A stretch of DNA of 64,000 bases from positions 1,828,936-1,892,935 of the forward strand of contig OZ244560.1 of NCBI GenBank assembly GCA_965217655.1, read 5' to 3'. Shown here piece after piece: positions 9,091 to 47,048 of this stretch; position 1 is the stretch's first letter; every line of letters starts with the position of its first letter. The notes beneath the pieces are model-generated. The model did not search any database, had not been told where the DNA came from, and saw only the letters and a program-made list of their open reading frames with translations. Made by a program: the position numbers and the translations under genes. The DNA comes from Candidatus Azotimanducaceae bacterium. GTDB lineage: Bacteria > Pseudomonadota > Gammaproteobacteria > Pseudomonadales > Azotimanducaceae.

Positions 9091-10731
9091 TCAGGATTGG
9101 ATATACATCCAATAAATACCCAGGCTGCCCAGGATAGAGGTGCCTATCAAGGCCTCCGGAATGGAAGCATAACCGCTTAACGGCAGTAACGATGCCAGGA
9201 CCGCTGCGATCAGCGCAACCCCGCCAATACGGGTATATCTGACTGTGCGTGACTGCCGGTGGAGTGCCTGTTTGATATCGTTCAACAGTCTGGTCTGTTG
9301 CTGCGTGTGCTCTCCCAGAGAATTGAGTTCCGATAACGCTCCGAGTGCGAGCTCAGGAAGTTGGGGCAACTGTTGCAGCCATCGTGGTGCATTTTTCTCG
9401 AATTCCCTGAAGATACCCTTGATCCCCATCCTTGCTTGCATCCATTCTTCCATATACGGTGCAGCGGTTTCCCAGAGATCCAGCGCCGGATAAATCTGGC
9501 GACCCATGCCTTCAATGTTCAGCAATGTCTTTTGCAGCAGAACCAGTTGGGGCTGAACTTCCATTTCGAACTGGCGGGCAGTTTTGAAAAGGCTGACCAG
9601 CACTTTTCCAAACGAAATTTCCGAGATCGGTTTTTGAAATATCGGCGCACAAACACTTCTGATGACTGATTCAAAAGACCTTACATCAGTATCATCGGGT
9701 ACCCACCCACTGGCAACGTGCAGTTCCGCGACTTGCCGGTAATCCTGATGGAAGAAGGCAAGCAGGTTTTGCGCCAGATAATTTCTGTCTGCATCGGTCA
9801 GCGATCCGATGATGGCGCAATCCAGTGCGATATAAGTCGGGTTTTCCGGATCGCTGATGTCAACATAGACATTGCCGGGGTGCATGTCTGCGTGGAAGAA
9901 ATTATGTTCAAAAACCTGGGTGAAGAAAATGTCCACACCGAGGTGGGCCAGTTTCCTGAGGTTGACGCCATTCTCCTTCAAAACTTCGAGATCCGTAGCG
10001 CGTACACCATGGATTCGTTCCATGACCATGACATCTGTGGAACAGTAATCCCAGTGGACTTCCGGAACATAGAGCATGTCACTGCCGAGCCAGTTCTTCC
10101 GCAATACTGCCGTATTGGCCGCTTCCATAAGCAGATTGAGTTCGTTGAGAATAGTTTGTTCGTAGTCTTTGACAACTTCTATGGCATGCAGCCGTTTCCC
10201 ATCCTGCCAGAAGCGTTCGACGATACCTGCCAGAAAATACATGACCTGCAGGTCCCGATTAATCAACTTCCGGATGCCGGGTCGGATGATTTTAATGACT
10301 ACTTCTGCACCGGATTGGAGGTTTGCGGTATGTATCTGGGCGACAGATGCAGAGGCGAGAGGGATATCCTGAAAATCGATAAATACGGAGTCCACGGAAT
10401 CATCCAGGCTGGCCTCAATGATACTGCGTGCCTGCGTTGCAGGAAATGGCGGGACCTGATCCTGTAATTTCTCCAGTTCCAATGCAAGTTCACCCGTCAG
10501 GAGATCTTTTCTGGTAGACAGTATCTGGCCGAATTTGATAAAGACCGGGCCAAGCTTCTCTACTGCCATGCGCAATGACACCGCGGCCGAACTGGCGGGT
10601 GTCGGGAACAGCCGCAGTATTGACATCGGGTATTTCAGCCAGAACGGGATAATCAGGTCTTGCGGGATGATGCGGTCCAGTCTGTAACGGACGATGACCC
10701 CCAGGATCCGAAGGAGTCTAAACACATGCAT
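9091..10731 (-). CDS. ubiB: Ubiquinone biosynthesis protein kinase-like UbiB
   Basis: ABC1/UbiB motifs are present ([19 protein letters not shown]) with C-terminal TM helices. I chose the ATG at 10731 ([11 protein letters not shown]), which overlaps the ubiE stop by 14 nt. The track ORF begins at 10812. Confidence 0.88.
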
Positions 10732-11485
10732 TGTCAGAAACCTTACGGCCAACATGAATCGCCGCCACACCATTGAAAATATTGTGATACTCCACCTGTT
10801 CATATCCGGCATCTGACAACATCTGGCGAAGTTCTTCCTGGGGGGGATGCATCCTGATCGACTCTACAAGGTATTGATAACTTTCCCTGTCACCTGTGAT
10901 GAACCTGCCCACTTCCGGCCACAGGCGGGAATATGAATCATAGAGGTTGCGAACGATGGGATTCTCTGGCCGTGAAAATTCAAGGATAACCAGTTTGCCT
11001 CCCGGTTTGAGTACGCGTTTTGTAGCGTTGATGGCGGCTTGTTTATCGGTGAAATTGCGCAATCCAAAACCAATAGTGATTGCATTGAATGTGTTATCCG
11101 GGAATGGCAGTACTTCCGCATCCGCCTGAACGAAGGTGACGTTGTTGCTGATGCCGTTGTTCAGCAGTCTGTTCCTGCCGTGAGTCAACATGGAATCATT
11201 GATATCGCAGAGAACAACCTGGCCGTGGTCACCCACTATCGAAGATAATCTGCATGCCAGATCGCCGGTGCCACCAGCCAGATCGAGAATGCAATGGCCA
11301 GGCCGGGCAACTGTATACTCAACAGCAACCTGTTTCATCAGGCGATGGGTACCGAGCGACATCACATCGTTCATGATGTCATATTGGCTTGCCACGGAAT
11401 GGAATACACCCGCCACCTGTTCGGCTTTTTCCCTTGCAGGGATTTTTTGGAAACCGAACCAGGTTGTTTTATCGTCTTCTGACAT
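10718..11485 (-). CDS. ubiE: Demethylmenaquinone/ubiquinone C-methyltransferase
   Basis: [21 protein letters not shown] and LDLAGGTGD are present; 255 aa. Confidence 0.92.
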
Positions 11486-11487
11486 GT

Positions 11488-11652
11488 CTAGGAGGCTGTC
11501 CGAGAACAGACTGACCTACTGCGGACAAGCCTGATTGGCCATATTTTCCGCTTATTTTCGTTTAATATGTACAATATTTGCCTCAAAAAACCAAAAAATA
11601 TGACTCAATCAGTCTCGCCCTCGCTACGGTCGCAGTTCTCGGACAGCCTCCC
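11488..11652. repeat. Small MITE-like element with 17-bp perfect inverted ends
   Basis: GGAGGCTGTCCGAGAAC at 11491-11507 and its reverse complement at 11635-11651. The left 32 nt (11488-11519) recur exactly, inverted, at 17268-17299. Confidence 0.7.
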
Positions 11653-11703
11653 AGAGACAACCGATCGAAGTCACGGGTTACAGTATAGCTGATGTAAAGC
11701 GGG

Positions 11704-12084
11704 TCAGTCTCCCGAGTGGCGTATTTCAATAAACCGGGAATCACGGCTTTTCCCGGCATTCGCCAGACGTTCCAGGTAGCTGGCCCAGTTGGATTCCTGA
11801 TTAATAGCCAGTTCATACAGGTATTGCCAGGAGAAAATACCCGAATCATGACCATCGGAAAAAATCAGTTTGAGGGCATAATTACCCTGTGGTTCCACGT
11901 CTCTGAACTGTACATCCCGCTTGCCAGACTGCAGCACCGCCTGGTCGGGTCCATGTCCCTGAACTTCTGCGGAAGGTGAGAAAACCCTGAGATATTCCGC
12001 ACTCAGGGTGAATGTGGAATTTTCACTGTAAACGAGTTCCAACTCGGCGGATTTTTTATGTATGTTGATTTTTACAGGGATCAT
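11704..12084 (-). CDS. DUF971 family protein (gamma-butyrobetaine hydroxylase-like N-terminal domain)
   Basis: 126 aa. Pattern LELVYSENSTFTLSAEYLRVFSPSAEV...GNYALKLIFSDGHDSGIFSWQYL. Confidence 0.7.
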   Translation of the reverse strand: MIPVKINIHKKSAELELVYSENSTFTLSAEYLRVFSPSAEVQGHGPDQAVLQSGKRDVQFRDVEPQGNYALKLIFSDGHDSGIFSWQYLYELAINQESNWASYLERLANAGKSRDSRFIEIRHSGD

Positions 12085-29541: not shown

Positions 29542-29957
29542 TCATCCGCAGGTTGCCACTGTATTCCGTGGCCCATCTTCTTCAATATCCAGTACGACAG
29601 AAAACGTAGTACTCCTCTGATATCCTTGTCTTGTATCAGCTCTCCCTCGCCCTGTGATTTCGACTCGCATATATACCGCGCGTGAACGAATACATTCTCG
29701 TTCCGGGAACAGATCGACTCGATTGTCTGCGGACCGACCCGGCGCCGCAAACTGTCCCGCTTCCAAACGTTTCGACCAGATCCAATAGCCGTCACCATCG
29801 AACGCCAGTACTTTGAGTAGTCTGCGGCGTCGATTCACGAACACAAACCAGTGCCCACCCGTCGGGCCTGCGCCCATGTGGTTGTGCACCATGGCCGACA
29901 GACCATCGAACGAACGCCGCATATCGGTTGCCTGGGTGCATAACCAGATAGGGCCAT
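29542..29957 (-). pseudogene. IS66-family orf2 (TnpB) remnant
   Basis: [22 protein letters not shown]...GHWFVFVNRRRRLLKVLAFDGDGYWIWSKRLEAGQF matches the IS66 Orf2 signature. The N-terminus is truncated by a stop and the C-terminus is degenerate. Confidence 0.7.
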
Positions 29958-29984
29958 CAGTCTACACTGGTATCGAGTCAATTA

Positions 29985-30100
29985 CCGACCAGCGAATGGC
30001 ACGCATCCATCGGCGACACGACCCTGGCTGATGCCATATTAGATCGGTTGATGCACAACGCACACTGAATAGAACTCAAGGGTACGTCAATGTGCAAGTA
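29985..30100 (+). pseudogene. IS21-type IstB-like ATPase C-terminal fragment
   Basis: Manual frame reads [34 protein letters not shown], a typical IstB-like tail with an internal TGA. Confidence 0.6.
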
Positions 30101-30231: not shown

Positions 30232-31713
30232 ATGAATGATTCTGAGAAATTGGTATCCCTGAGTGAAGGTACTCAAGTTATTCTTCAGAACGGAAGAGTA
30301 GTTCGAATAACTAAAGAACTAGTAAACGCTTTTCGTCCGGGGGATAAGTTGGTTGCTCTCCAAAAAACTGGTGAGATCAAACTGATTCCATCTAGTGAGT
30401 CAATGATTGCAGAAGCAGCGGTTTCTAATGCACTTGACGGCTTTCACAGAATGCGATCAGTATCAAGTCACCAAATAGGACATTTTTTTGATCATGTTGC
30501 TCGACTCTTAGATAACGAGGGAAACTGGCGCCAGATATGTAGAGCAAACAAAGTTGATGTGGATAGAACTGTAGCGAGGAAGCGGCCTGTAGATAGGTTA
30601 TTAACAACCAGCAAACTGCGAAGGTCCATGATATCAGGCGTTAATACATGGAAACAGTTTATTTCTACTCAAGAAATGCCAACGGAAGTTATTAACCACG
30701 CTGAATTTAGAGTTGAGGTTTTCAAGGCGCCGTTGGGGGTGGTCGCCTTCGTTTTCGAAGGTCGACCCAACGTACTTATTGATGCTTGTGGAGTTCTATC
30801 GAACGGAAATTCTGTCGTTTTCCGGATAGGTAGTGATGCTATAGAAACAGCTCGGACCATTATGAACACTGTAATCGAACCGGCTTTGGATCTTTCAGGC
30901 CTTCCTAAAGGGGCAATTACCATGGTTGATAGCACCACCCATGCTTCGGCATGGGCTTTATTTGGAGATGACCGAATTTCCCTTGCAGTAGCTCGTGGGT
31001 CTGGTGAAACGACTATTACTTTGGGAGCGATAGCGATGCAGCAGGGCATTCCGGTTAGTTTGCACGGGAAAGGCGGCGCGTGGATAGTGGTAGGTGAGGC
31101 TATTAACGAAGATGTAGTGGAACACGCAGTATCAAATTCTGTAGATCGAAAAGTCTGCAACACACTAAACACTCTCTGTCTGGTGAGATCGGTAGCCGAG
31201 AAATTTGTCCCAGTCGTGATTAGGGCGTTAGAAAAAAAACATGAAACGTTTAGGATTCATGTGGTACACGGTGGCGAATCCTTTATAAACAGCTCGTTAT
31301 TCAAAAAGAAGGTTGTAGTTACTAGGTTCGGAGTCGATCACGAAGAGTTTCAGGTTGATGCTGTATCTTTGAAATCAGTGGGTACCGAATGGGACTGGGA
31401 GGAAAACCCAGAGATTACTCTTGTTGTGATTGACGATGTTAATGAAGGAATTGAACTTTTTAACAAGTATAGTCCCAAGTTCGTTGCTTCATTACTAAGT
31501 AGCTGTTCTGAAGAACGACAAAACTTTTACGACCGCATCGAAGCTCCTTTTGTTGGTGACGATTATACTAGGTGGGTAGATGGCCAACTTGCCCTCAAAA
31601 AACCGGAACTTGGTTTATCAAACTGGCAGTTAGGAAGGTTATTCTCCCGAGGTGGGATTCTTTCCGGTGATGGTGTTTACACTCTTCGAACGAGATACTA
31701 CAAAAAGTCGTAG
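30232..31713 (+). CDS. Divergent gamma-glutamyl phosphate reductase (ProA)-like aldehyde dehydrogenase with an N-terminal extension of about 60 aa
   Basis: KAPLGVVAFVFEGRPNVLIDACGVLSNGNSVVFRIGSDA aligns with ProA PLGVIGVIYEARPNVTVD..GNAVILRGG. RKVCNTLNTLCLV aligns with the ProA catalytic Cys motif. The C-terminal GLSNWQLGRLFSRGG aligns with the STQKLHARGP region. Confidence 0.65.
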   Translation: MNDSEKLVSLSEGTQVILQNGRVVRITKELVNAFRPGDKLVALQKTGEIKLIPSSESMIAEAAVSNALDGFHRMRSVSSHQIGHFFDHVARLLDNEGNWRQICRANKVDVDRTVARKRPVDRLLTTSKLRRSMISGVNTWKQFISTQEMPTEVINHAEFRVEVFKAPLGVVAFVFEGRPNVLIDACGVLSNGNSVVFRIGSDAIETARTIMNTVIEPALDLSGLPKGAITMVDSTTHASAWALFGDDRISLAVARGSGETTITLGAIAMQQGIPVSLHGKGGAWIVVGEAINEDVVEHAVSNSVDRKVCNTLNTLCLVRSVAEKFVPVVIRALEKKHETFRIHVVHGGESFINSSLFKKKVVVTRFGVDHEEFQVDAVSLKSVGTEWDWEENPEITLVVIDDVNEGIELFNKYSPKFVASLLSSCSEERQNFYDRIEAPFVGDDYTRWVDGQLALKKPELGLSNWQLGRLFSRGGILSGDGVYTLRTRYYKKS

Positions 31714-32103
31714 GAATTTCCAGGTTTGATGATTCTTGACGGTCTTCTTCAATCGCTTAGAGACACTTCTGATAGCATCCATGCGCTTACATCTGAACGT
31801 ATGCCTGCAATAAATTTACCCTAAAGGTCAAAGCGCTTTGTACACAATTGGGATGAATACTCAAGGTCATTTTAAGTGTTGACATCCAATTTTTCCATGA
31901 TACCTTCTTGCTGCGATTGTCTTGTAGAGAGCATTGCCAGTTGTAATAAGTATACAGCCTTACTTCTCTTGCGATCTGAAAAGCCAAGACTATAGTAGTC
32001 CCTTATTTCCAGAGGAGTTCACGCCAAAACAAATGAGAAATGGAGTAAATTCGTTTTGACCCATAGAGTGGGATTGTTTCCATCATGGGCATGAGGCTAT
32101 TTC

Positions 32104-33330
32104 ATGGGCACTAATACCTTAACCTTAATCAATCACTTGAAAAATGGCACGCCTCTTGAGGGGCGTTTCTCCAACATTAAAGTTGTTAATCGTAACGCTA
32201 CCACTGGTGAAATGGATCTTGGACATCAAGGTTCCCTCTCTGTAATATTTCACGCCATCGATGAGACAACTCAAAAAGAGGTCGCGCTAAAATTCTTTGA
32301 CCCAGATCGCCTTGGGCTTAGCGCAAAGTATCGAATGGACCTTTTTGAGCGCGAAGCGAAGTTACTTGGGCAATTCGTAGAAAGGCCCCGATTTTTGCAG
32401 CTAATCAAGCCACTTTCCGAGATAACGATCTCTGCAACTGAAGAGAATGGAAATTCAATAACAGTCCAATGCGCTTATTTTGTTATCGAGTGGTTAGATG
32501 GAGATATAACCAAGTATTTTTTGAGACAAAATGAATATGATGCTCTTGTCAAGCTATCGCTATTTAGACAAATTGTTTTAGGTGTGATTTCGCTACACAG
32601 TGAGAAAGTCGCACACCGGGATATCAAAAGCGACAATTTAAGACAAACGGTCAAAAATAATAGAGAAATGACTATTGCTATCGATTTTGGTACAGCTATC
32701 CAGCTTGATTCAACTCCCATCGGAACAATCAGCGATTATTCATCTGCAGTTGGTGCAAACTGGTTCGCGCCCATTGAAGCCAGGGTAGGACTCGCGGGCA
32801 TTCGCGAAGTTGCTATTTATTCCGACATATACGCAGTGGGCTGCATTCTGCATGATTTATTTAACATCGAATATTTTACTCAAAGACTAAATATGGATGC
32901 TGGATATATAAACTGTTTGGGCTCATGCTTCGGACATATCTCAACAATTCAACAAAACAGCATAAGTGACAAAGACCTTATTAAAGAATTTGAACGTATT
33001 TTAAACCTTACACGAAATCAGGTCGTTTTGCCCGGAATTGATAGTGCCGACACAAGTGTACCTAATGCCGCCAGAGATCAACTAAGCCGTCTTCTCCATA
33101 AACTCACTAACATTGATTACAAACATCGAGAACATAACTTGCAGGGAATATTAAAAATGATTGATTCTGCAACCAGAAGCATAAAAAACGAGCTTATGGA
33201 TCGTAAAAAACTGGATCAACGTAGAATAAAACGAGATCAAAGCAAACTGAAATTGCAACGTAAAAATGCTAGATTAGATGAGTACCTCTCTGAAGGGCAA
33301 GGAGGAATACCACATGCTGGTACCCAATGA
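32104..33330 (+). CDS. Eukaryotic-like Ser/Thr protein kinase (kinase domain plus charged coiled C-tail)
   Basis: G-loop LGHQGSLSV, VALK (Lys63), alpha-C Glu (FEREAKLL), HRDIKSDNL (171-179), IDFGTA (DFG) and WFAPIE (APE-like). Confidence 0.85.
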   Translation: MGTNTLTLINHLKNGTPLEGRFSNIKVVNRNATTGEMDLGHQGSLSVIFHAIDETTQKEVALKFFDPDRLGLSAKYRMDLFEREAKLLGQFVERPRFLQLIKPLSEITISATEENGNSITVQCAYFVIEWLDGDITKYFLRQNEYDALVKLSLFRQIVLGVISLHSEKVAHRDIKSDNLRQTVKNNREMTIAIDFGTAIQLDSTPIGTISDYSSAVGANWFAPIEARVGLAGIREVAIYSDIYAVGCILHDLFNIEYFTQRLNMDAGYINCLGSCFGHISTIQQNSISDKDLIKEFERILNLTRNQVVLPGIDSADTSVPNAARDQLSRLLHKLTNIDYKHREHNLQGILKMIDSATRSIKNELMDRKKLDQRRIKRDQSKLKLQRKNARLDEYLSEGQGGIPHAGTQ

Positions 33331-35158
33331 AACTTCTAAAGTAGAGGAGTTAATGCCGAGGGAAGAACCTTCTGTAGTTGATATAGGTCCAGAAACACAT
33401 CCCAGCAGCCGCGCGACTCTACCCCCGGTCGTTCAGCTTCAGAAAGGCATGCAAAAAGTAACCCCCATGCTTGAAAAAGTTGACTCTGAATTTCAAAGCG
33501 CAATGGAAATGGCGGGAAAGGCAGAACTTGACAGTCTTTTGAGCCGTTATGATGAATTTAAAGATTCTGAAAACTATTTGGCTAAAGTGTCCAGCCTCGC
33601 GGTCGCGTGTGGTCGATTCGATATCGCCCGGGAATATGCACAACAAGCGATGCTCCAGACCGACAAGAACGATAGTTTCAAGTACAGGCTCGCTGAAGTT
33701 GCCATGTATGAGAACGAAATCACAACAGCAGAATCAATTTTTAAGGAACTCGCCAAGTCAGGTCATCTTCTTGCTTGCCTGAGAATGGTCGAACTGTCGG
33801 TCACTAATTCAAAATTAATAAATGCACACGAATGGCTTTTGAAGGCGATTAGAATTGACGAAACTGACTGGAGAGTTCAAATGCTCGCCGGAACGTTGGC
33901 ATTAATTCAGGGGAAATCGGCCAAAGCAATTCGTTATTTTCGCGCTACGCTTGACGAGAGGCCAAGGTCAGTACAACTTTACTATTACATGGCTTTAGGA
34001 CACATCTCCGCTGGACATTCTGGGCAAGCACTAAAGGCGCTCCGTAAAGCTGTTGGCCTGAATCCCTTTGAAAAAAAGGCATTGATGGCATGGACCGATC
34101 TCTGTGTTGATAAAAAGATGGGTCTCGATAACGTATCGATAGCATTATCGCGGTATCTGGAGTTAATTCCCAACGACAAGCCCATGATAGAAAGACTGGC
34201 CTATATCCTGCTTGAGAAAAACGACAAAAGGAATTTAAGAAAGTTATTAGGGGAAGCCCGAAAAAACAATGATGACGCTATTGTTTCAAACAGTTTGGGT
34301 GTACTCGCGTTTAGGTCCAGGAACGTACCACTAGCCGTGCAAGAATTTCGGCGAGCCATCGAATTAGCAGAGGGTTTAATTGATATTGAATACAGTAGAG
34401 TTCGCACAATAGCGACTGCAAATCTTATCAATTCCCTCCTTGACCTTAAAAAATATAAAGATGCAGAGCGTATATCGAGGGCATTTTTAAAATCCCATGG
34501 GGAGAATTATTTACTCAACGATGAATTTGGAAATCGTATAGCAGATGGATTGGTACGTGCGCTATCGAATTTACTCAAACAAGATCAAGCTGTCTCACTT
34601 GCGGAACGATGGATAGCCAAACAAACCCATCCAGACCTCTATATCAGCCTTGCAGAATTTCTAGTTTGCAACTTCACACTTAAAGATATTCAATTGGACA
34701 AAGCTTATCATTACGCCCTTGAGGCATATAAGTTACAATGGACCAAGCCACAAAAAAATTTGGCGAAATTGAATTGGGCACTGAATAATCTAGTATTTAC
34801 ACTGATCGAGATGGACAAATATGAGGAGGCGAAATATTACATTTCGCACTTTAGGTCAGATTCACCTGAACCAAACACTTATGGATATGCGACTCGCGGA
34901 CTTCTAGCAATTCGCCTCGGTCAGGTTGAAAAAGGAGAAAGTCTCTATCGGCAAGCAATGTTAAGAGTACAAGATGACATGAAAGGCACATTTCGACGAA
35001 AACTAAATTGGGAATTAGGCAATCATTTTCTGGACAGGGGGGACGTTCGTAAAGCGAAACGCCATCTTAAGAAAGTCGTTACAGAAAGGGCAGAAAGTGT
35101 TTGGTCCATGGATCATCTACGTGCACAAGCAAAAATCAAACTTGCCAAAATTTCATGA
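33314..35158 (+). CDS. Large TPR-repeat protein
   Basis: The ATG at 33314 is preceded by AAGGAGGAA and overlaps the kinase 3' end by 17 nt. There are many 34-aa TPR-like units (for example AIRYFRATLDERPRSVQLYYYMALGHISAGHSGQALKALRKAVGLNP). Confidence 0.8.
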   Translation: MLVPNETSKVEELMPREEPSVVDIGPETHPSSRATLPPVVQLQKGMQKVTPMLEKVDSEFQSAMEMAGKAELDSLLSRYDEFKDSENYLAKVSSLAVACGRFDIAREYAQQAMLQTDKNDSFKYRLAEVAMYENEITTAESIFKELAKSGHLLACLRMVELSVTNSKLINAHEWLLKAIRIDETDWRVQMLAGTLALIQGKSAKAIRYFRATLDERPRSVQLYYYMALGHISAGHSGQALKALRKAVGLNPFEKKALMAWTDLCVDKKMGLDNVSIALSRYLELIPNDKPMIERLAYILLEKNDKRNLRKLLGEARKNNDDAIVSNSLGVLAFRSRNVPLAVQEFRRAIELAEGLIDIEYSRVRTIATANLINSLLDLKKYKDAERISRAFLKSHGENYLLNDEFGNRIADGLVRALSNLLKQDQAVSLAERWIAKQTHPDLYISLAEFLVCNFTLKDIQLDKAYHYALEAYKLQWTKPQKNLAKLNWALNNLVFTLIEMDKYEEAKYYISHFRSDSPEPNTYGYATRGLLAIRLGQVEKGESLYRQAMLRVQDDMKGTFRRKLNWELGNHFLDRGDVRKAKRHLKKVVTERAESVWSMDHLRAQAKIKLAKIS

Positions 35159-35169
35159 CCTAATTACAC

Positions 35170-35595
35170 GCACGCCACGAGCGCGCCTCGACGGTGTTGA
35201 CGTCGAATAAGGGTTTCGAAGACTGGGGCAGTGTACTTGGGGACGAGGTCATGGCCGCGGCGTTGATTGATCGTCTCCGGCACCACTTCCACATCGTCAA
35301 CATTCGGGGTAACAGCTACCGGATGCGGGCGCATCAGGATCTGCTACGTGTCGGGGCCGAGGAAGACGGTATCCGGGCAGGTGCCACATGAGCAGGTTCT
35401 TACGCTCCGGCGCGCGTTGCGATCTGGACGTCGGACGCTCCGCTCCCTTCGCCCAATGCCATGGGCAGCACTCCCCGCAGTGATCGGACCAGTGATGTGC
35501 ACGGACAGAGGACAGACCAAAAGGGGACATTTTAACTTTGGACAAAAGGGGACATTTTAACTTTGGTTTGACACAATTTTCGATTGACATTGACA
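35170..35595 (+). mobile_element. IS21-family 3' remnant (istB tail plus terminal repeats)
   Basis: TVLTSNKGFEDWGSVLGDEVMAAALIDRLRHHFHIVNIRGNSYRMR is a canonical IstB C-terminus. It is followed by two direct copies of AAAAGGGGACATTTTAACTTTGG (about 35518-35566) and an end ...TTGACATTGACA (reverse complement TGTCAATGTCAA), as at IS21 termini. Confidence 0.75.
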
Positions 35596-35754: not shown

Positions 35755-37485
35755 ATGTTGCAAATTGCGTCCGGAAAACTCTTTACCAACGAACCGAGAC
35801 AGCGCAACGAACTACGCGGTGTCCTCCATACAAATCTCTTAATCTTGCCTGGCACCCATATAGAAACTAAGGCTGGCCGACTTTTGCCAACTAATGCCAA
35901 TTCGAAAAACAGTAGCCAATTGATCTACGAATTTACTGAATTGATCGAAGATGAGCCATCTCCAGGTGTGATAGCTTCACATGGAATCGACGCGTATGCT
36001 CACGATTTCGCGGCGGTCGTTTCACTAGGTCTCAATGTAGTGTGTACAGTAGAACCTAATGATACTGATCGATTAATCGGATACCAACGTAGCACGAAGC
36101 TCTTATACTCACCCAGTTCCTTTATCCCAAGGGTGTTTGACCAGGCAGTTTGGCTCAAGCAAGAAGAGATTGAACCGTTTATTCACTTTGTCAATAGCCT
36201 TGTTGCGCTGAATCGTAAAGCCTTCCTTGCTGCTATACGCGCAATTCGCACATACGTTGTCGCTTTGCAAAGGCTCCCGGACGATCCAGATCTAGCTTAT
36301 ACGCTGCTCGTCGCTTCAGTCGAATCATTAGCACAGAAATTCGACAATTTTCAGCCTAAGTGGGCCGACTACAACCATGCGAAGAAGAAAAGCATAGATG
36401 ACGCATTAGTTAACGCTGACCGTGCTACAAAGCAGAGCGTGCGCCAGGCATTGCTAAGAACTGAACATCTGTTATTGGCACGAAGGTTTCGGGAATTTTC
36501 GATCGCACATGTAGGCCCTGACTACTTTCGAGAGGAAGCGCTGAATGTGGAGATGCCAGCCAGTCGCCCCGACTTAGAAGAAGCGTTGCAAGGCGCGTAC
36601 AGGATACGCTCCCGCTTTGTACACAATTTGCGCGAGCTTCCCCGGCCGTTGCTTATTAGTCAAATACAGAGAGATACTACCTGTGTAGAAGGCAAAACGC
36701 TGTTTACATTTCGTGGAATCGCGCGTCTTGCACGGCACGTGATTATAGAATTTATTCAGCGACAACCAAAGGTAGAGAAAGAGAAATACGACTATCGTGA
36801 CGAGCGATATGGGATTGTTAATGTTACCCTAGCGCCACAATATTGGATCGGAAGGCCCGACAGTGTAAGGCTGGATTCTGGCACCAAAAGATTACAAGGT
36901 TTTTTGGAGCAGGTATCTTCTTGTTTCAAAAAAAACAAGGGTGCAGCAATAACCGATCTTCGGCCCATGCTCCAACTGGCGGAAAAACTCTTTGTTTCGC
37001 CAAACCCCAAGCAGCGACGTCCCATGCTTGCCCTCTATTTTCTGTTCAACGGACTGAGACCCAAAGAAGGGCGCATGCCAAACCTCGCAGCCGTTGAGAC
37101 CAAGTATCTTACGGAGATGGAAACTCCTTCAATTGAGGCGATGTTTGTTCACTTGGTTGTACAAGTACGTCCAAACTGGTCCTTAGACACGTACCAAAGG
37201 CTACATGATTGTTACTTTGAACAAAGGAAAAACAAGGACGGACTTATGGTTCCACGCACTTTCGAGGCCGGTATTGCATTAGAATTGGCGGAACGGTATA
37301 GACTTGAAGGTGATTTCAAGGTGGCCAAGGATTCTGTCGCTAACGCAGTTGAATACTTTCCAGAACATAAGCCGCTCCAACTGATGGAAAACAATCTCAA
37401 CCCGGATGACACGATCAATTGGTTCGATGTCATTTTCCCTGACAGCAAAGCAACAATCAAAACTGGCTCTGATACTTCTTCGTAA
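35755..37485 (+). CDS. Hypothetical 576-aa protein with a putative HEPN-like (Rx4H) domain
   Basis: AYTLLVASVESLAQKF and, about 90 aa later, GAYRIRSRFVHNL (aromatic-x2-RSxxxH). This resembles the helix-1 acidic plus Rx4-6H signature of Apea/RiboL-PSP/Abi-type HEPN families. The C-terminal half is unrecognised. Confidence 0.45.
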   Translation: MLQIASGKLFTNEPRQRNELRGVLHTNLLILPGTHIETKAGRLLPTNANSKNSSQLIYEFTELIEDEPSPGVIASHGIDAYAHDFAAVVSLGLNVVCTVEPNDTDRLIGYQRSTKLLYSPSSFIPRVFDQAVWLKQEEIEPFIHFVNSLVALNRKAFLAAIRAIRTYVVALQRLPDDPDLAYTLLVASVESLAQKFDNFQPKWADYNHAKKKSIDDALVNADRATKQSVRQALLRTEHLLLARRFREFSIAHVGPDYFREEALNVEMPASRPDLEEALQGAYRIRSRFVHNLRELPRPLLISQIQRDTTCVEGKTLFTFRGIARLARHVIIEFIQRQPKVEKEKYDYRDERYGIVNVTLAPQYWIGRPDSVRLDSGTKRLQGFLEQVSSCFKKNKGAAITDLRPMLQLAEKLFVSPNPKQRRPMLALYFLFNGLRPKEGRMPNLAAVETKYLTEMETPSIEAMFVHLVVQVRPNWSLDTYQRLHDCYFEQRKNKDGLMVPRTFEAGIALELAERYRLEGDFKVAKDSVANAVEYFPEHKPLQLMENNLNPDDTINWFDVIFPDSKATIKTGSDTSS

Positions 37486-40325: not shown

Positions 40326-43115
40326 CTACCTCAGGTTCGTGCGCTTTGTCTTCCCTTTGATTCCAACCCCCAGTGGTGAGAGCATTTTATCATAGAGCAT
40401 GAACAGACATTCTATACGCTCACGCTCAGAGGTGAATCCTTTGCGGCTGTATAGCCTGTCCACCGCACGGTCAAGGCGCCTATGCGCTTGGCGCAGGTTT
40501 GGCGGCATGATGTCGGGATCATAGAGATCGGCCAATGTCGCGTCAGGATGTGCGGCTCGGGCATCAAGTACGTCTTGAGCCAGCGGCTCCATTTTCGACA
40601 TGTCAGCGTCTTCCTGTGGGGCCGGGAAGGTATTGTAGACAAGGCCGATGGAATAACGGTAATCGCTCTTTAGCCGACCACCAACATGTCGCAACCAGGC
40701 CATGTGCATAGCAGAGGTCAGTAGCGCGAAGTCCACCAAGGTGGCATTTTCCAGTAAGCGAACGAGGTTGCTCGGGATAACCGGTGGCTCCAACCAGCCA
40801 ATGGGCACATATTCCCGGCGCTCCGAGCTGACTTCTGGAATGACCAGAAACGGCGTGGTAGGTAGAACGTTAACATGATAAATCGCTGGTGTTTCTGCCA
40901 ACTTTTGCGTAGGTCGGCTCCTACTGGCTTTCCGGTATGCTCGGACTGCTGCAATTCGTTCCCGCACACGAGGAAGCCGCGCCAGCAAATTCGGCGGTGT
41001 GTCATGCAGGACTAATATCCAGCGTGCACCGCCTTGCAGATATTCCCGCGCGCCGACATAAGGGTGCAGTAAGGACTCGGCATCTGGTTCGATGTCCAAA
41101 AACGCCGCCCGCTCATCTGCGTCAAAGATGAAATTCCCGCCATCAATTGGCTTCGAGCCGATGATAAGCCTACCCATCCCGTTGATCGGCCTGATTTCCT
41201 CATGCACTGTGAGATGGGGGTTAGCAAGCCCACCTGCGTCGAACAGGTAGGGCGACAGCTTGGCATGATGGCTTTCTTCTGGTTCGCCGTTGATATCGGG
41301 ATAGCTGAACAGGCGTTTGTCTGCTCTCGTGTTTTCATTCTTGTCGAGGCCGACAATCACGACATGTACATGCGCTTTACCGCGTACGTCGGACCCCCAG
41401 TTGAAAGTGCGGTGAGCGAAGGCGATTTCCAGCTGGCAGCGGTCGAACAAGACCGGCCACAGTTGTGCCGCCTGCTCACCCTGACTGATCGAATTGGTCG
41501 CAACAAATCCGATCCGAGCTTTGCTTGTCCTGACATACTCCCCTGCCTTTAGCAACCATGCAGTCACATAGTCAAGCGTGCCGCCGGTCTTGCCGAGCGC
41601 GGCAATCCTTCGCACCTGGGCGCGCTGCACCTCTGTCTGTAACTTCGCGCCCACGAAGGGCGGATTGCCGAATACGAAGGAGCACGCTTCCGGCGGCAGC
41701 AATTCCGACCATTCGGTTTCCAGCGCGTCCCCGTGCATGATGTGCGGTGACGTTCGCAAGGGGATGCGTACATAAATCTGACCAAACTCCAGGCTGAGTC
41801 GATTATTCATGATGTGGTCCATCATCCACATTGCGGTTTCTGCGATGCGAGTCGGGAACTCACCAATTTCAATTCCGTAGAACTGATCGACATCGATCAG
41901 CGATATTGTTTCCGTATACATGCCCCTTTGACGTGAATGGAGAGGATACAGTTCTTTCAGCACTTCGATTTCAAGCGTGCGCAATTCCCGGTAAGCAATG
42001 ATAAGGAAGTTGCCGCATCCGCAGGCGGGGTCGAAGAACCGCATCCGCCCAAGCTTCTCTTGAAGCTGGCGCAACGCTGCTAGACGACGACTATCCTTAC
42101 GGTTTTTAAGCCGCAAGAATTCAGCCTGCAGATCGTCCATGAACAGAGGCTCGATCACCTTCAGGATGTTCTTCTCGGTGGTGTAGTGTGCACCTTGGGC
42201 ACGGCGGACATCCGGGTCCATCACCGATTGAAACAGTGCGCCGAAAATCGCAGGTGAGATGTTCGTCCAGTCAAAGCGGCAGGCGTCGAGTAGCGCCTCT
42301 CGCATGGTCGTGTTGAAAGCCGGGATACGCAAAGGCCCGTTGAACAGGTCGCCATTGATATAAGGGAAGCGTACAAGGTCTTCGTCCAACGTTGCAGTGC
42401 GGTCAACCTCCGGCGTATCCAGTACCTGGAACAGTTGCGATAACAAAGGTCCGAGATCGGCACCGTCTACACTTGTGCGCGTCTCGATGAAATCGAGGAA
42501 GATGTCGCGCGGCTCGAAGATGCCAGTGTCATCGGCGAACAGGCAAAACACAGTTCGAACCAGGAAACATTCAAGATCGTGACCACGGTAACCCGCCTCG
42601 TCGAGGGCATCGTGCAGCCGCCCGACCAATTCGGCAGCCTTGATATTGGCCGGATCCTGGTCGCGGAAGGTCCGTCGTTGTATACCGAGGATGAAACCGA
42701 AGTGCTCTACATGATCTGGCAGATCTTCAAGGGCGAATGCAACCTTCCTGCGCTCGTCAAGATCGTGCAATTCGAAGGTCTGAAAGTCACTCACCAGGAT
42801 GTAGCGGGGACGGTCTCGTTCCGGGAGAGCATCAAAATATTTCCCGGCCTGATCGTAGGCTTTGTCGAGATCGCGCCCGGCGCTCTTCTGCTCTACTATC
42901 AGGACACTCGGCCAGAACAGGTCGATAAATCCCGACCGGTTGTCCAGCTTCGCCACATGCTCTTCGTAACGAGCAACGGTACGGCGCTTTACCCCAAACA
43001 CCTCAAAGAATTCATTATAGAAACTTTGCGTCTCTCCCTTCTCGTATGCAGCATCTTGCCAGTCTGTGGTAAAAACAGAAGCACGGGTGCGAATTTCATT
43101 CCATGAAAGGCGCAT
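40326..43115 (-). CDS. MmeI-family type IIL (type IIG) restriction-modification enzyme
   Basis: The N-terminus MRLSWNEIRTRA...SFYNEFFEVFGV...GFIDLFWPSVLIVEQKSAGRDLDKAYDQAGKYF parallels the MmeI N-terminus as I remember it, including the D-X9-EXK nuclease motif (D65, E75, K77). Methylase motif I is FDPACGCGNFLI and motif IV is FGNPPFVG. 929 aa. Confidence 0.85.
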   Translation of the reverse strand: MRLSWNEIRTRASVFTTDWQDAAYEKGETQSFYNEFFEVFGVKRRTVARYEEHVAKLDNRSGFIDLFWPSVLIVEQKSAGRDLDKAYDQAGKYFDALPERDRPRYILVSDFQTFELHDLDERRKVAFALEDLPDHVEHFGFILGIQRRTFRDQDPANIKAAELVGRLHDALDEAGYRGHDLECFLVRTVFCLFADDTGIFEPRDIFLDFIETRTSVDGADLGPLLSQLFQVLDTPEVDRTATLDEDLVRFPYINGDLFNGPLRIPAFNTTMREALLDACRFDWTNISPAIFGALFQSVMDPDVRRAQGAHYTTEKNILKVIEPLFMDDLQAEFLRLKNRKDSRRLAALRQLQEKLGRMRFFDPACGCGNFLIIAYRELRTLEIEVLKELYPLHSRQRGMYTETISLIDVDQFYGIEIGEFPTRIAETAMWMMDHIMNNRLSLEFGQIYVRIPLRTSPHIMHGDALETEWSELLPPEACSFVFGNPPFVGAKLQTEVQRAQVRRIAALGKTGGTLDYVTAWLLKAGEYVRTSKARIGFVATNSISQGEQAAQLWPVLFDRCQLEIAFAHRTFNWGSDVRGKAHVHVVIVGLDKNENTRADKRLFSYPDINGEPEESHHAKLSPYLFDAGGLANPHLTVHEEIRPINGMGRLIIGSKPIDGGNFIFDADERAAFLDIEPDAESLLHPYVGAREYLQGGARWILVLHDTPPNLLARLPRVRERIAAVRAYRKASRSRPTQKLAETPAIYHVNVLPTTPFLVIPEVSSERREYVPIGWLEPPVIPSNLVRLLENATLVDFALLTSAMHMAWLRHVGGRLKSDYRYSIGLVYNTFPAPQEDADMSKMEPLAQDVLDARAAHPDATLADLYDPDIMPPNLRQAHRRLDRAVDRLYSRKGFTSERERIECLFMLYDKMLSPLGVGIKGKTKRTNLR

Positions 43116-43835: not shown

Positions 43836-44306
43836 TTACCTCCCCGACACCCGTTCAACGTACTCTTTCACCAGGAGCAGATTCTCCATTGAACCCTCCA
43901 GCAAAAGGTCCATGGGCGCCTTGCCTTTCAAAACTTTCTGGGGTTCTCTCAGCCATTCGTTCTCAACAGCCTCGTCTCGAAAGAGAGCGGACAACAACTT
44001 TCTGATCTGAAAGAGATGGGCAATTCGGTCTTTTGCATCTCTTCCAGTAAGAGTCTCGTTCCCCTGTAGCACGGCATTCACGTATGGCATCCGAGAAGGT
44101 TCCATTCCCAGCAAAATACAGGCTTTTTCTGCTTCCAATTGCCAGGTAGAGAGCAGTTGATTGACGAACCTGATAGGACCAGTGATTCTGCCACGGTAGG
44201 AGGGTCGTATTGTCGTTTGTGCTTCATCACGGAGTAATGCTGCTTGTTGTAACCCAAGGACAACTAATAGTCGCTGTAGTGATCGATTTATCTCCTGCAA
44301 TCGCAA
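43836..44306 (-). CDS. Xre/MbcA/ParS-type antitoxin (DUF2384 toxin-binding domain), orphan
   Basis: The C-terminal ENEWLREPQKVLKGKAPMDLLLEGSMENLLLVKEYVERV is the DUF2384 signature (W....N..LgG..P..ll.t..G...V...L). TTG start. No RES or other toxin ORF lies downstream. Confidence 0.65.
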   Translation of the reverse strand: MRLQEINRSLQRLLVVLGLQQAALLRDEAQTTIRPSYRGRITGPIRFVNQLLSTWQLEAEKACILLGMEPSRMPYVNAVLQGNETLTGRDAKDRIAHLFQIRKLLSALFRDEAVENEWLREPQKVLKGKAPMDLLLEGSMENLLLVKEYVERVSGR

Positions 44307-45074: not shown

Positions 45075-45866
45075 CTAGGACGGCCCTAAGTATTTTTCAA
45101 CATTTGGTACGAATGTCAGATACTGGCCGAATACACGATATTTCAGGTCCCACAAAGTCTTTTTTGACAGTTTGTTGGGGAACGAAGGTCTGTCACGCGT
45201 AACCGCGTGCTCAGGATCAAGCGTGTCGATCATCGCATGAACCACGATCCCGTAACGAAGGAGTCTCTGGCGTTCAGATGTGTGTCGGGTCCGAAACAGG
45301 GTTTGTGTCAAGTATTTTAACCATCTTTGGGCTTCAGGATTACATTCCATCAGTCGTATGAACTCTATGAACAAAATCGTTTCCTGTTGACCGTCGTTGT
45401 GTCGGGTCATCATAAGTTCTCCGACCGCACGCTGCGATATTCTATCGACGAGCCGAGTCCTGCGAGATGCGATGTGATTCATGAAACTTTGAAGCTGCAT
45501 GCCACGAATATCCTGAGTAATCGATACATACAGCGCTTTGCGGTGAAGTATCTCGATATTAGCCCATAGGTTCACCATCAGGAAAGTAAGGCTGGTGAAG
45601 TCCCTGTTCTCGATGCGTCCAGCTAATGGGTCTACATCGTAGATGCTTTGAAAGTCCTCTTGTGCCAGCGACAGTAGTTTGCCTACTAATTCATCGGCAG
45701 ACTTCAGCAAAGGGTCGAGGTGCTCATCAATGAATCGCTCTGATGTTATCTTTCTCTCGGAACGGCGGCTATAATGCTGGTACAGAATTTCCAATCCTTT
45801 GGCGGAAAAGGCTCCAAAAAAGCCAGCGGAAGCCCCCACTATAAACAGTTTTAACCACTCATCCAT
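45075..45866 (-). CDS. Hypothetical protein with one N-terminal TM helix
   Basis: 263-aa AT-rich ORF (WLKLFIVGASAGFFGAFSAKGL). No motif recognised. A GGGCCGTCCT/AGGACGGCCC hairpin overlaps its stop. Confidence 0.5.
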   Translation of the reverse strand: MDEWLKLFIVGASAGFFGAFSAKGLEILYQHYSRRSERKITSERFIDEHLDPLLKSADELVGKLLSLAQEDFQSIYDVDPLAGRIENRDFTSLTFLMVNLWANIEILHRKALYVSITQDIRGMQLQSFMNHIASRRTRLVDRISQRAVGELMMTRHNDGQQETILFIEFIRLMECNPEAQRWLKYLTQTLFRTRHTSERQRLLRYGIVVHAMIDTLDPEHAVTRDRPSFPNKLSKKTLWDLKYRVFGQYLTFVPNVEKYLGPS

Positions 45867-45972
45867 ACCAAATGCCTATCTATACCACTGCCATCTTCAT
45901 ACTTATTCGAAAGAGTAGGATATGTTTTGACTGCTATTAGTACCTTTTCCCTGGCCATATGTTGTCATTAAT

Positions 45973-46872
45973 CTATAGATTGATGAAGGTTGTTTCCTTT
46001 GGGAGGGTTATTCGTAATTTGTCCGCGATTCTTCCACGATGACACTGGTTATGGGATTCTTCAAAACAGGTTATCGCGATACGACGATTACAGTGGAAGT
46101 CATCCTCCAGTTCCTTAACTTTCTCTATTTGTTGTTCCAATACAGTTCTCTCATATTTCTTGAAAAGTGCATCGTAATCTGATTGTCTGTTCAAAGATTG
46201 CCGGTCATTCGATTCAATCCCCAGCTCTGGCAGATGCTTGTATTTAATAGAAAAATCACTTAGAAGTTTAGACAAGACGGTTTTCGAAAAACCATATTTC
46301 CTGCTAAAGGGATTCTTTCTGACATCAATTAGCATCCTTACATCATTGACAATGAGTTTAGTAAGGTAAGCTTCAATACTTAATCCCTCGTATCCTATTG
46401 TTGCAAACAAGGTTTTATAAAGAAATTTTGGACGGAGTTTGATAACATTTTCAAGGTCTTGACCTGACAGAGTTTCATCCAGTATCTCGCTGTTAATTGC
46501 ATAAAAGGGATAGTTCTTATAGATGTGCCTTACAAGATTCTTTCCTTTCAGTTCACCATATCTTTCTACATAAAGAGCCATTTTTTTGTCATCATTCCTG
46601 CTCAATTCTGATACGTAATTGTTGCCAGTCCGTGTAAGTTTCCAAGCACTGGTATCTTCCAGGTATCCAATGTCAATCAGCTTTCGTTTGTCCTTTACAG
46701 CCTGAAAGGAATAACAACCAAATCGATAGGGAACAAAATCATAGCTTTTCTTGTTTTCGCAAAGTCTTGTATATAGAAAAAGATGTTTTTGAAAATCAGT
46801 AGATGTCAGCACGCCTTCAAAGTGTTGTATCAAGGCGAGGAGTACCTTTTGTCGATAAAACAGCTTTGGCAT
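45973..46872 (-). CDS. DUF488-domain protein with an N-terminal YwgA/Panacea-like winged-helix extension
   Basis: The C-terminal half TIGYEGLSIEAYLTKLIVNDVRMLIDVRKNPFSRKYGFSK...LPELGI and CFEESHNQCHR fit the DUF488 pattern. The N-terminal FVPYRFGCYSFQAVKD...GYL resembles YwgA-like wHTH. The ATG at 46872 is preferred over the TTG at 46884. Confidence 0.55.
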   Translation of the reverse strand: MPKLFYRQKVLLALIQHFEGVLTSTDFQKHLFLYTRLCENKKSYDFVPYRFGCYSFQAVKDKRKLIDIGYLEDTSAWKLTRTGNNYVSELSRNDDKKMALYVERYGELKGKNLVRHIYKNYPFYAINSEILDETLSGQDLENVIKLRPKFLYKTLFATIGYEGLSIEAYLTKLIVNDVRMLIDVRKNPFSRKYGFSKTVLSKLLSDFSIKYKHLPELGIESNDRQSLNRQSDYDALFKKYERTVLEQQIEKVKELEDDFHCNRRIAITCFEESHNQCHRGRIADKLRITLPKETTFINL

Positions 46873-47048
46873 TAAGGCATCCAAAATTGAAATTATAGCT
46901 GACTAGGTATCAAAATCCGCAAAATTAAGAGCATGATTCCACGAATTGGACAGCATTATATGGAGATTTTGCGCTCAATCTCTGTAGGTAAACGACTCTG
47001 TTGTCGTATTACTGTGCCCTTGAGAGCCATCTGCGAACACCCTGATTC

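Follow-up and report, generated by a model that had tools for sequence, protein, structure and literature searches.

What is a protein kinase gene doing when it overlaps the gene of a long TPR protein within an AT-rich island of a bacterial chromosome? The question is raised by a 64,000-nucleotide stretch of contig OZ244560.1 from a Candidatus Azotimanducaceae bacterium (positions 1,828,936 to 1,892,935 of the contig; hereafter the window), in which the two genes occupy positions 32104-35158. A sequence-only reading of the window had singled them out as an undescribed phage-defence or conflict module. We find that the pair is a genuine, conserved and rapidly evolving accessory module with a recurrent association with defence islands and mobile elements. 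As to its function, we tentatively put forward, at somewhat less than an even chance, a self-contained two-gene conflict module, most likely anti-phage, in which the kinase would act as effector and the TPR protein as sensor. The unit is composed as follows.

31813-32103, + strand: conserved 5' leader, presumed promoter or regulatory sequence, with which the transferable unit begins on the left (blastn homology with the related locus L004)
32104-33330, + strand: Hanks-type (eukaryote-like) Ser/Thr protein kinase, 408 aa (open reading frame and Pfam Pkinase match)
33299-33307, + strand: Shine-Dalgarno sequence AAGGAGGAA of the TPR gene, within the 3' end of the kinase gene (direct sequence reading)
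33314-35158, + strand: TPR solenoid protein, 614 aa (open reading frame and matches to Pfam TPR families)

The first clue is the junction itself. The Shine-Dalgarno sequence is followed by a 6-nt spacer, by the ATG of the TPR gene at 33314 and by the kinase stop codon TGA at 33328-33330, giving an overlap of 17 nt between two genes on the + strand. This arrangement is exactly that of the sequence-only reading, which had placed the ATG 17 nt inside the kinase 3' end; the protein length of 615 aa given there has to be corrected, since the open reading frame (ORF) from this ATG encodes 614 aa. We take the ATG at 33314 and not an upstream ATG at 33278 as the start because homologues align from M1. 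The leader, of approximately 290 bp, is ~93-94% identical to that of L004. It contains a sigma-70-like match at 31969-31996, of a kind equally frequent in shuffled sequence; the promoter and terminator scan is uninformative, because its counts equal those of shuffled sequence. A structured RNA or riboswitch in the leader was considered and gained no support (fold z = -0.1 and -0.7; Rfam reports nothing in the window). A small upstream ORF conserved across clades was looked for and none was found, conservation here being nucleotide conservation within subclades only.

Where does the unit end? Among the relatives on long contigs L004 is the nearest, with proteins 84-85% identical and the pair at the same site of the chromosome. 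By blastn, the block that it shares comprises leader, kinase and TPR gene and spans 31813-35167, starting 291 bp before the kinase ATG and ending 9 bp beyond the stop codon of the TPR gene. The GC content is 0.41-0.44 across 30-35 kb, compared with ~0.49-0.55 in the flanks, in agreement with the AT-richer block described from the sequence alone.

The pairing extends well beyond these two genomes. A TPR gene of ~600 aa lies directly downstream of the kinase in L001-L005, L007-L009, L012-L014, L017 and L021 (handles for the related loci recovered here, in part through the genomic contexts of TPR or kinase homologues), and all 14 kinase-bearing loci from other assemblies have their TPR partner, over kinase identities from 100% down to 28% and with intergenic spacings of -17 to +14 nt. 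Moreover, the pairwise identities of the kinases and of the TPR proteins correlate with r = 0.99 (78 comparisons). The kinase and TPR gene are an obligate, co-inherited two-gene unit, and their conservation as neighbours in other genomes, which the sequence-only reading had proposed as a check, is borne out by all kinase-bearing loci and by this co-divergence.

How large is the family, and who carries it? A protein search with the TPR sequence returned 41 full-length relatives (39-96% identity), all from metagenome assemblies and none functionally named. A profile search of 1.84 billion cluster representatives yielded at least 225 TPR clusters at 50% identity (E<=1e-30), at least 138 of them collinear full-length proteins of ~580-630 aa; the cluster members sampled are again metagenomic, and the few named ones carry only generic names such as "TPR repeat protein". 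Among 185,579 GTDB species representatives, three have a TPR locus, all of them gammaproteobacterial metagenome-assembled genomes, and each has, immediately before the TPR gene, a kinase 46-47% identical to that of the window. A scan of JGI metagenomes gave two near-identical fragments only, and PHROGs a generic kinase family and a weak TPR match only. A distant branch (L012, 9715-12909; L014, 542-3733; L015 and L016) has a three-gene overlapping operon, in which an XRE-type helix-turn-helix (HTH) gene of 100-108 aa precedes a kinase of 368-371 aa (28-32% identical) and a TPR protein of 592-600 aa. The HTH protein matches the PADLOC regulator models HTH_VI and capH, and its overlapping gene fits a regulated stress or defence operon.

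Could the kinase serve as an effector? Its match to Pfam Pkinase (PF00069) scores 71.2 bits against a cut-off of 31.7 (E 1.2e-19), above the gathering threshold, and the catalytic Lys, the alpha-C Glu and the HRDxKxxN, DFG and APE motifs are present, which places it among the Hanks-type kinases. Residues K63, E84, H171-R172-D173, K175, N178, D194-x-G196, E225 and D241 are invariant in 42 kinase homologues reaching down to ~25% identity. In the window protein the motifs read D194-F-G196 and A222-P-I-E225 (APxE), with a catalytic loop of the RD type, while the glycine loop is partly degenerate and retains G43. The sequence-only reading had all kinase motifs intact, which holds for the catalytic residues. 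As judged from its sequence, the kinase looks catalytically competent. Neither Pfam nor NCBIfam reports a further domain in the kinase or the TPR protein, be it sensory or enzymatic, and the AlphaFold2 model of the kinase has no membrane segment, so that the earlier description of a kinase without sensor, receiver or transmembrane domain stands.

The kinase model (predicted local distance difference test, pLDDT, 90.4) has the canonical bilobal fold, extended by a conserved helical C-terminal region (~255-345) and then by a single 54-residue basic helix (346-399). This Lys/Arg-rich helix is encoded at nt ~33139-33300, and the positive charge of the tail is kept even in the distant branches, the net charge of the last 65 residues being +4 to +13 in 13/13 loci. 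From the model, the helix could be a docking, dimerisation or nucleic-acid-binding element. An electrostatic match between the basic tail and the TPR protein was considered and is not supported, as the net charge of the latter varies from -9 to +12. Foldseek aligns the kinase with CaMKII, CASK, DCLK1 and SRPK-type kinases, including autoinhibited forms that bear C-terminal regulatory helices; the likeness of the model to such autoinhibited forms is suggestive but generic.

The partner protein is recognised by several Pfam families, namely TPR_16 (53.8 bits, cut-off 32.7), TPR_2 (46.2 bits, cut-off 27), TPR_14 (37.7 bits, cut-off 23.5) and also TPR_19. Its AlphaFold2 model (pLDDT 87.3) consists of ~30 helices forming ~15 TPR-like hairpins, preceded by a small beta element at approximately residues 19-55. 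Sequence profiles, modelled hairpins and Foldseek matches to TPR superhelices agree in assigning it to the TPR-repeat proteins, and no enzymatic domain was found in it. From Foldseek it has no matches more specific than long TPR scaffolds of a generic kind, among them Ctr9, Ski3 and the TPR domain of OGT. The stretch best conserved over all branches is C-terminal (NNxxF ... ATRGLL ... G ... LY). In one subclade (protein P0027; L008, 10001-12451) the TPR protein continues in frame into a C-terminal Uma2 domain (PD-(D/E)xK nuclease-like), reaching 816 aa, and in P0033 it carries a different, unrelated C-terminal extension, for a total of 785 aa. Either extension may be a genuine fusion to an effector or may come from read-through into a gene downstream.

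If the pair acts in conflicts, what company does it keep? Approximately five independent lineages with the complete pair, plus one orphan-TPR locus, lie in defence islands, with the neighbouring defence genes called by PADLOC models.

Window: MmeI-family enzyme
L001: type III Mod methyltransferase (497 bits) directly upstream of the pair
L004: PDC-S31 and MmeI (PDC-S31 is listed with MmeI as a neighbour for the window as well)
L005: HmaA (549 bits) directly downstream of the pair, HmaB nearby
L013: ThsB (248 bits) and ThsA nearby; the pair stands beside the integrase-AlpA-GPA of an apparent integrative element
L021 (10001-13095): Wadjet JetBCD, reverse transcriptase with HTH, type I HsdS/M; DUF433 and HIRAN genes
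L006 (orphan TPR gene, 10001-11794): pAgo, type I restriction-modification, Dcm/Vsr; PfkB gene upstream
L003, L009/L010 (between POR and GAPDH-UvrC), L007 and L014-L016: housekeeping contexts

At L006, the TPR gene has no kinase within 10 kb. L006 and L021 are on the same 8.7-Mb contig, which therefore holds an orphan TPR gene and a complete pair in two separate islands. The surroundings of L002, L008 and L012 are rich in insertion sequences (IS).

The pair also evolves fast. Comparison of the window with L004 gives the kinase gene a ratio of nonsynonymous to synonymous substitution rates (dN/dS) of 0.45 and the TPR gene one of 0.40, against 0.05 for a flanking acyl-CoA dehydrogenase and 0.10 for a flanking methyltransferase; in the same genome pair MmeI has 0.19 and the IS4 transposase 0.16. 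The values of the pair are thus 4-9 times those of the flanking core genes. Despite this elevation both genes are intact, with all catalytic residues.

Contexts and rates bear directly on a rather unlikely alternative, namely that the pair serves ordinary cellular signalling, with the TPR protein as an adaptor that sets the substrate choice, localisation or activity of the kinase in host physiology (stress, envelope or development). Kinase-TPR combinations occur in bacterial signalling proteins, PknG being an example, and the generic structure matches and a weak PknG_TPR match would fit such a role. So would the lineages that hold the pair amid housekeeping genes, with the order POR-[pair]-GAPDH-UvrC common to L003 and L009/L010, and L014-L016 and L007 likewise in non-defence contexts. 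In contrast, the extremely patchy spread over the GTDB representatives, the recurrence in defence islands and beside mobile elements, the raised dN/dS, the atypical GC content and the IS scars at the flanks are not what signalling would lead one to expect, and the operon offers no phosphatase, FHA or receiver partner.

Several points nevertheless weigh against the proposal of a conflict module. Approximately half of the independent lineages have the pair amid housekeeping or metabolic genes, and the context set is small (~13 lineages, taken as raw counts). Because several lineages fall in housekeeping contexts, the association with defence is suggestive, not proven; of the enrichment near defence genes, which the sequence-only reading had proposed as a check, what we see is a recurrence beside known systems and mobile elements that is frequent but not universal. 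The elevated dN/dS comes from two close relatives, L004 and, for the TPR gene only, L019, and could reflect diversifying pressure or relaxed constraint, the second of which would tell against a role in conflicts. Structure lends no functional specificity, because Foldseek yields only generic kinase and TPR matches; a structural hint to function was also sought in sequence searches of the PDB and given up, as the two approaches return generic eukaryote-type kinases and TPR scaffolds only. Searches of viral contigs (IMG/VR), phages (INPHARED) and plasmids (PLSDB) gave no relatives. Finally, the nearest catalogued entity, the two-gene PADLOC candidate PDC-M71, is itself only a computational candidate. 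The claim of an undescribed defence or conflict module has therefore to be divided: the obligate unit, its defence neighbours and its fast evolution speak for it, while the PADLOC candidate match and the housekeeping lineages limit it.

The tight translational coupling, present in all loci, invites a further explanation, an addiction system of the toxin-antitoxin (TA) kind in which the kinase would be a growth-arresting toxin and the TPR protein its stoichiometric restraint, the whole stabilising its carrier islands and mobile elements, with or without a part in phage defence. We regard this as improbable. Kinase toxins do exist, for instance in the HipA family (DS-6/HipAD; PMC13092281). The pair is also found on or beside mobile elements, as IS remnants in the window, L002, L008 and L012 and an integrative element in L013 indicate, and in one branch it has the XRE-type gene, which resembles an autoregulator. 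On the other hand, the putative antitoxin would be a downstream-encoded 614-aa solenoid, unlike the small and labile antitoxins of type II systems, and an orphan TPR gene without kinase exists (L006), yet no orphan kinase was seen. The window clade is without any DNA-binding component: the partner is a solenoid that has no such domain, and the XRE-type HTH is confined to the distant branch.

Might the pair instead act on an animal host? Kinases and TPR proteins are classic eukaryote-like classes in sponge symbionts, and a eukaryote-type kinase with its TPR partner could serve to manipulate host cell processes, although we hold such a role to be very improbable. At least one carrier, L002 (WLWT01000001.1), comes from the metagenome of the sponge Mycale hentscheli (PMC7157528), and at L009/L010 a large ankyrin-repeat protein is encoded near the pair; both observations hint that marine Gammaproteobacteria living with animals may be where the family is concentrated. 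Against a host-interaction pair stand the lack of a signal peptide at either N-terminus and of a linked secretion system gene, the pairing and tight coupling, which suggest an intracellular complex, and the defence-island contexts, which it leaves unexplained.

We return, then, to the conflict module and how it might work. Leader, kinase and TPR gene would form the unit, with translational coupling yielding the two proteins together. We infer that these proteins form a complex in which the TPR solenoid would bind a ligand, as sensor, and regulate the kinase, possibly by holding its conserved C-terminal extension or its basic helix. Once the TPR surface recognised a protein or peptide of the invader, the kinase would be set free or activated and would phosphorylate host proteins, phage proteins or both, so that infection is stopped by abortive infection or direct inhibition. 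The stand-alone kinases Stk2 and PD-T4-6 have been reported to halt infection by phosphorylation. The sensor-effector proposal draws on the analogy with these kinases and with the TPR sensors of other immune systems; by that analogy the TPR protein may be the sensor or gate and the RD-type kinase the effector, and the targets of the kinase and a defence phenotype would follow from the same comparison. A bolder version, which we consider possible though doubtful, is that the pair represents a new immune family, in which a stand-alone ~600-aa TPR protein, a pattern-recognition receptor for phage proteins, directly gates a dedicated Hanks kinase by way of the C-terminal extension and basic helix of that kinase. 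Such a family would sense without an NTPase switch and act through a phosphorylating effector; one branch would be under XRE control, and a nuclease-like domain would occasionally be fused to the TPR protein.

The rest of the island provides the setting. It extends over ~28.5-47 kb, after the core pilMNOPQ-aroK-aroB cluster, and also holds an IS66 orf2 fragment, an IS4-type transposase and an IS3 HTH fragment. Its other features are listed below.

29955-30089, + strand: degenerate C-terminal fragment of IstB (IS21 helper) with an in-frame stop, the left boundary of the AT-rich block (tblastn E 5e-4)
30232-31713, + strand: ProA-like aldehyde dehydrogenase of divergent sequence, 493 aa, extended at the N-terminus (Pfam Aldedh 1.7e-11)
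35188-35328, + strand: C-terminal part of IstB, left over as a truncated 3' end from a different IS21-family element, the right boundary (tblastn E 3.5e-8)
35518-35566, + strand: two perfect tandem 24-nt direct repeats CAAAAGGGGACATTTTAACTTTGG (repeat search)
35755-37485, + strand: 576-aa ORF, just right of the IS21 remnant
40326-43115, - strand: MmeI-family type IIL restriction-modification enzyme, complete, five-domain (PADLOC model)
43836-44306, - strand: Xre/MbcA/ParS-type antitoxin
45075-46884, - strand: a 263-aa ORF without family match adjoining a 303-aa protein

The two IstB fragments, both on the + strand, show that IstB tails do flank the block, as the sequence-only reading had it; its picture of a pair boxed in by IS21 scars is correct as to the flanking remnants and incomplete as to the contents, because the box also holds the unconserved ProA-like gene. 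A composite IS21 transposon was rejected: the remnants differ, both are truncated and no DNA repeat links them. The CAAAAGGGGACATTTTAACTTTGG repeats lie ~190 nt downstream of the right-hand fragment and look like the repeats that occur in several copies at the right terminus of IS21-family elements. The ProA-like protein is glutamate-5-semialdehyde dehydrogenase-like (NCBIfam ProA, 134 bits against a cut-off of 289) and matches an uncharacterised phage family, phrog_13417 (E 5.9e-18). As a third component of the module it was rejected, being missing from L004 and from the other pair loci except the identical contig L011, and it lies outside the module because the block in common with L004 begins only at 31813.

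Of the remaining neighbours named in the sequence-only reading, the MmeI-like enzyme proves to be a complete member of its family. It is ~89% identical in L004 (14213-16990), where its order relative to the IS4-type transposase is different, which indicates that the island was rearranged between these close relatives. The 720 bp downstream of the antitoxin contain no intact toxin ORF; the gene looks like an orphan, as had been proposed, or like the remainder of a decayed TA locus. The HEPN-like label of the 576-aa ORF could not be confirmed. This ORF has no Pfam, NCBIfam, PADLOC or PHROG match; it carries an RSRFVH (Rx4H) string, probably the source of the label. In the 303-aa protein, a DUF488 domain covers only the C-terminal 120 residues.

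Why should such a pair matter? Kinase-based phage defence comprises a handful of systems only (Stk2, PD-T4-6, KKP and the PglW and mad6 components), and to our knowledge the way in which these kinases sense infection is largely unclear. If our proposal is right, a compact module with a separate TPR receptor tied firmly to a kinase would be a convenient system in which to study how bacterial immune kinases are activated, and a prokaryotic parallel to the repeat-receptor-plus-kinase signalling of eukaryotic innate immunity. The family is of considerable size, with consistent lengths and a consistent architecture; it is entirely unannotated and comes almost wholly from uncultured, partly sponge-associated bacteria, and standard annotation pipelines would name its members merely "protein kinase" and "TPR protein". 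Should the pair turn out to serve ordinary signalling, a clean two-gene family and its boundaries would still have been defined. We regard it less as a surprise than as a solid candidate with clear boundaries that merits experiments, and its interest as moderate.

How, finally, does the pair relate to known systems? Among the profiles of PADLOC-DB v2.0.0, the source of the PDC-M71 models, the kinase matches PD-T4-6 best (2.4e-20, 71 bits, residues 42-253) and also matches mad6, MkoA and PDC-M71A. The PDC-M71A match (E 1.9e-13, 48.5 bits) aligns residues 110-345 with profile positions 104-319 of 352 (61%), with generic kinase models scoring higher, and the C-terminal extension of the kinase alone has no PADLOC match. 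The TPR protein has a single match in the database, PDC-M71B (E 1.4e-16, 58.4 bits). The same holds across the family: 34/34 TPR homologues match only PDC-M71B among TPR-containing defence models, and 9/9 kinases match PDC-M71A. Since the kinase matches component A and the TPR protein component B, both proteins point to one two-gene PADLOC candidate, and the absence of a PADLOC match that the sequence-only reading expected gives way to a partial one. PDC-M71 resembles the pair in having two genes, one for a protein kinase and one for a partner with TPR-like repeats, and the adjacency is likewise found here, in the 17-nt overlap on the + strand. It differs in that our kinase scores higher with the generic PD-T4-6 and mad6 models and that component B is matched only at profile positions ~378-482 of 515 (~20%), as is also the case in the distant branches. 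TPR segments ~283-386 and ~489-560 both map to this same stretch, so that the similarity is at the level of the repeats. True membership of PDC-M71 was rejected at component B on these grounds, and because the match is shallow we regard PDC-M71, from the profile comparisons, as the catalogued architecture that comes nearest but do not place the pair in that family. Entries of the PDC series are computational candidates, of which some have been validated and others have failed; no searchable paper mentions PDC-M71.

With PD-T4-6 of E. coli and Stk2 of Staphylococcus, the pair shares the Hanks-type Ser/Thr kinase domain and the proposed logic of defence by phosphorylation. Those are single-gene systems, whereas here a TPR gene for a ~600-aa protein follows the kinase in all kinase-bearing loci, and only the catalytic core is similar; among the best 25 of the 32 PADLOC matches of the window kinase there is no Stk2 model. 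STAND NTPases (Avs/AVAST-type) likewise couple a long TPR array, as presumed ligand sensor, to an effector. In our case, by contrast, neither protein has a P-loop or STAND NTPase domain (Pfam, NCBIfam and PADLOC), and sensor and effector would be separate polypeptides. PknG joins a Hanks kinase functionally to TPR, and the PknG_TPR Pfam match mentioned above (E 0.043, below cut-off) is in line with this; PknG is, however, a single polypeptide with a short TPR region in housekeeping or virulence signalling, whereas the pair consists of separate genes with a far longer solenoid in mobile or defence contexts.

A literature search turned up no published system that combines a Hanks kinase with a separate large TPR protein, in agreement with the sequence-only reading, which knew of no named defence system of this composition. 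The nearest analogue in logic is BcTir/Tpr of Bacillus cereus, a two-gene anti-phage operon with an enzymatic domain and a separate TPR-containing protein (bioRxiv 10.1101/2023.05.26.542521). There too an enzymatic protein works with a separate TPR protein, the likeness being one of description; the enzyme is a TIR/NADase and not a kinase, and BcTpr has a catalytic domain of its own at the N-terminus, whereas the window TPR protein has none. Taken together, the pair is best classed as a kinase-based candidate defence system with an architecture like that of the PADLOC candidate PDC-M71.

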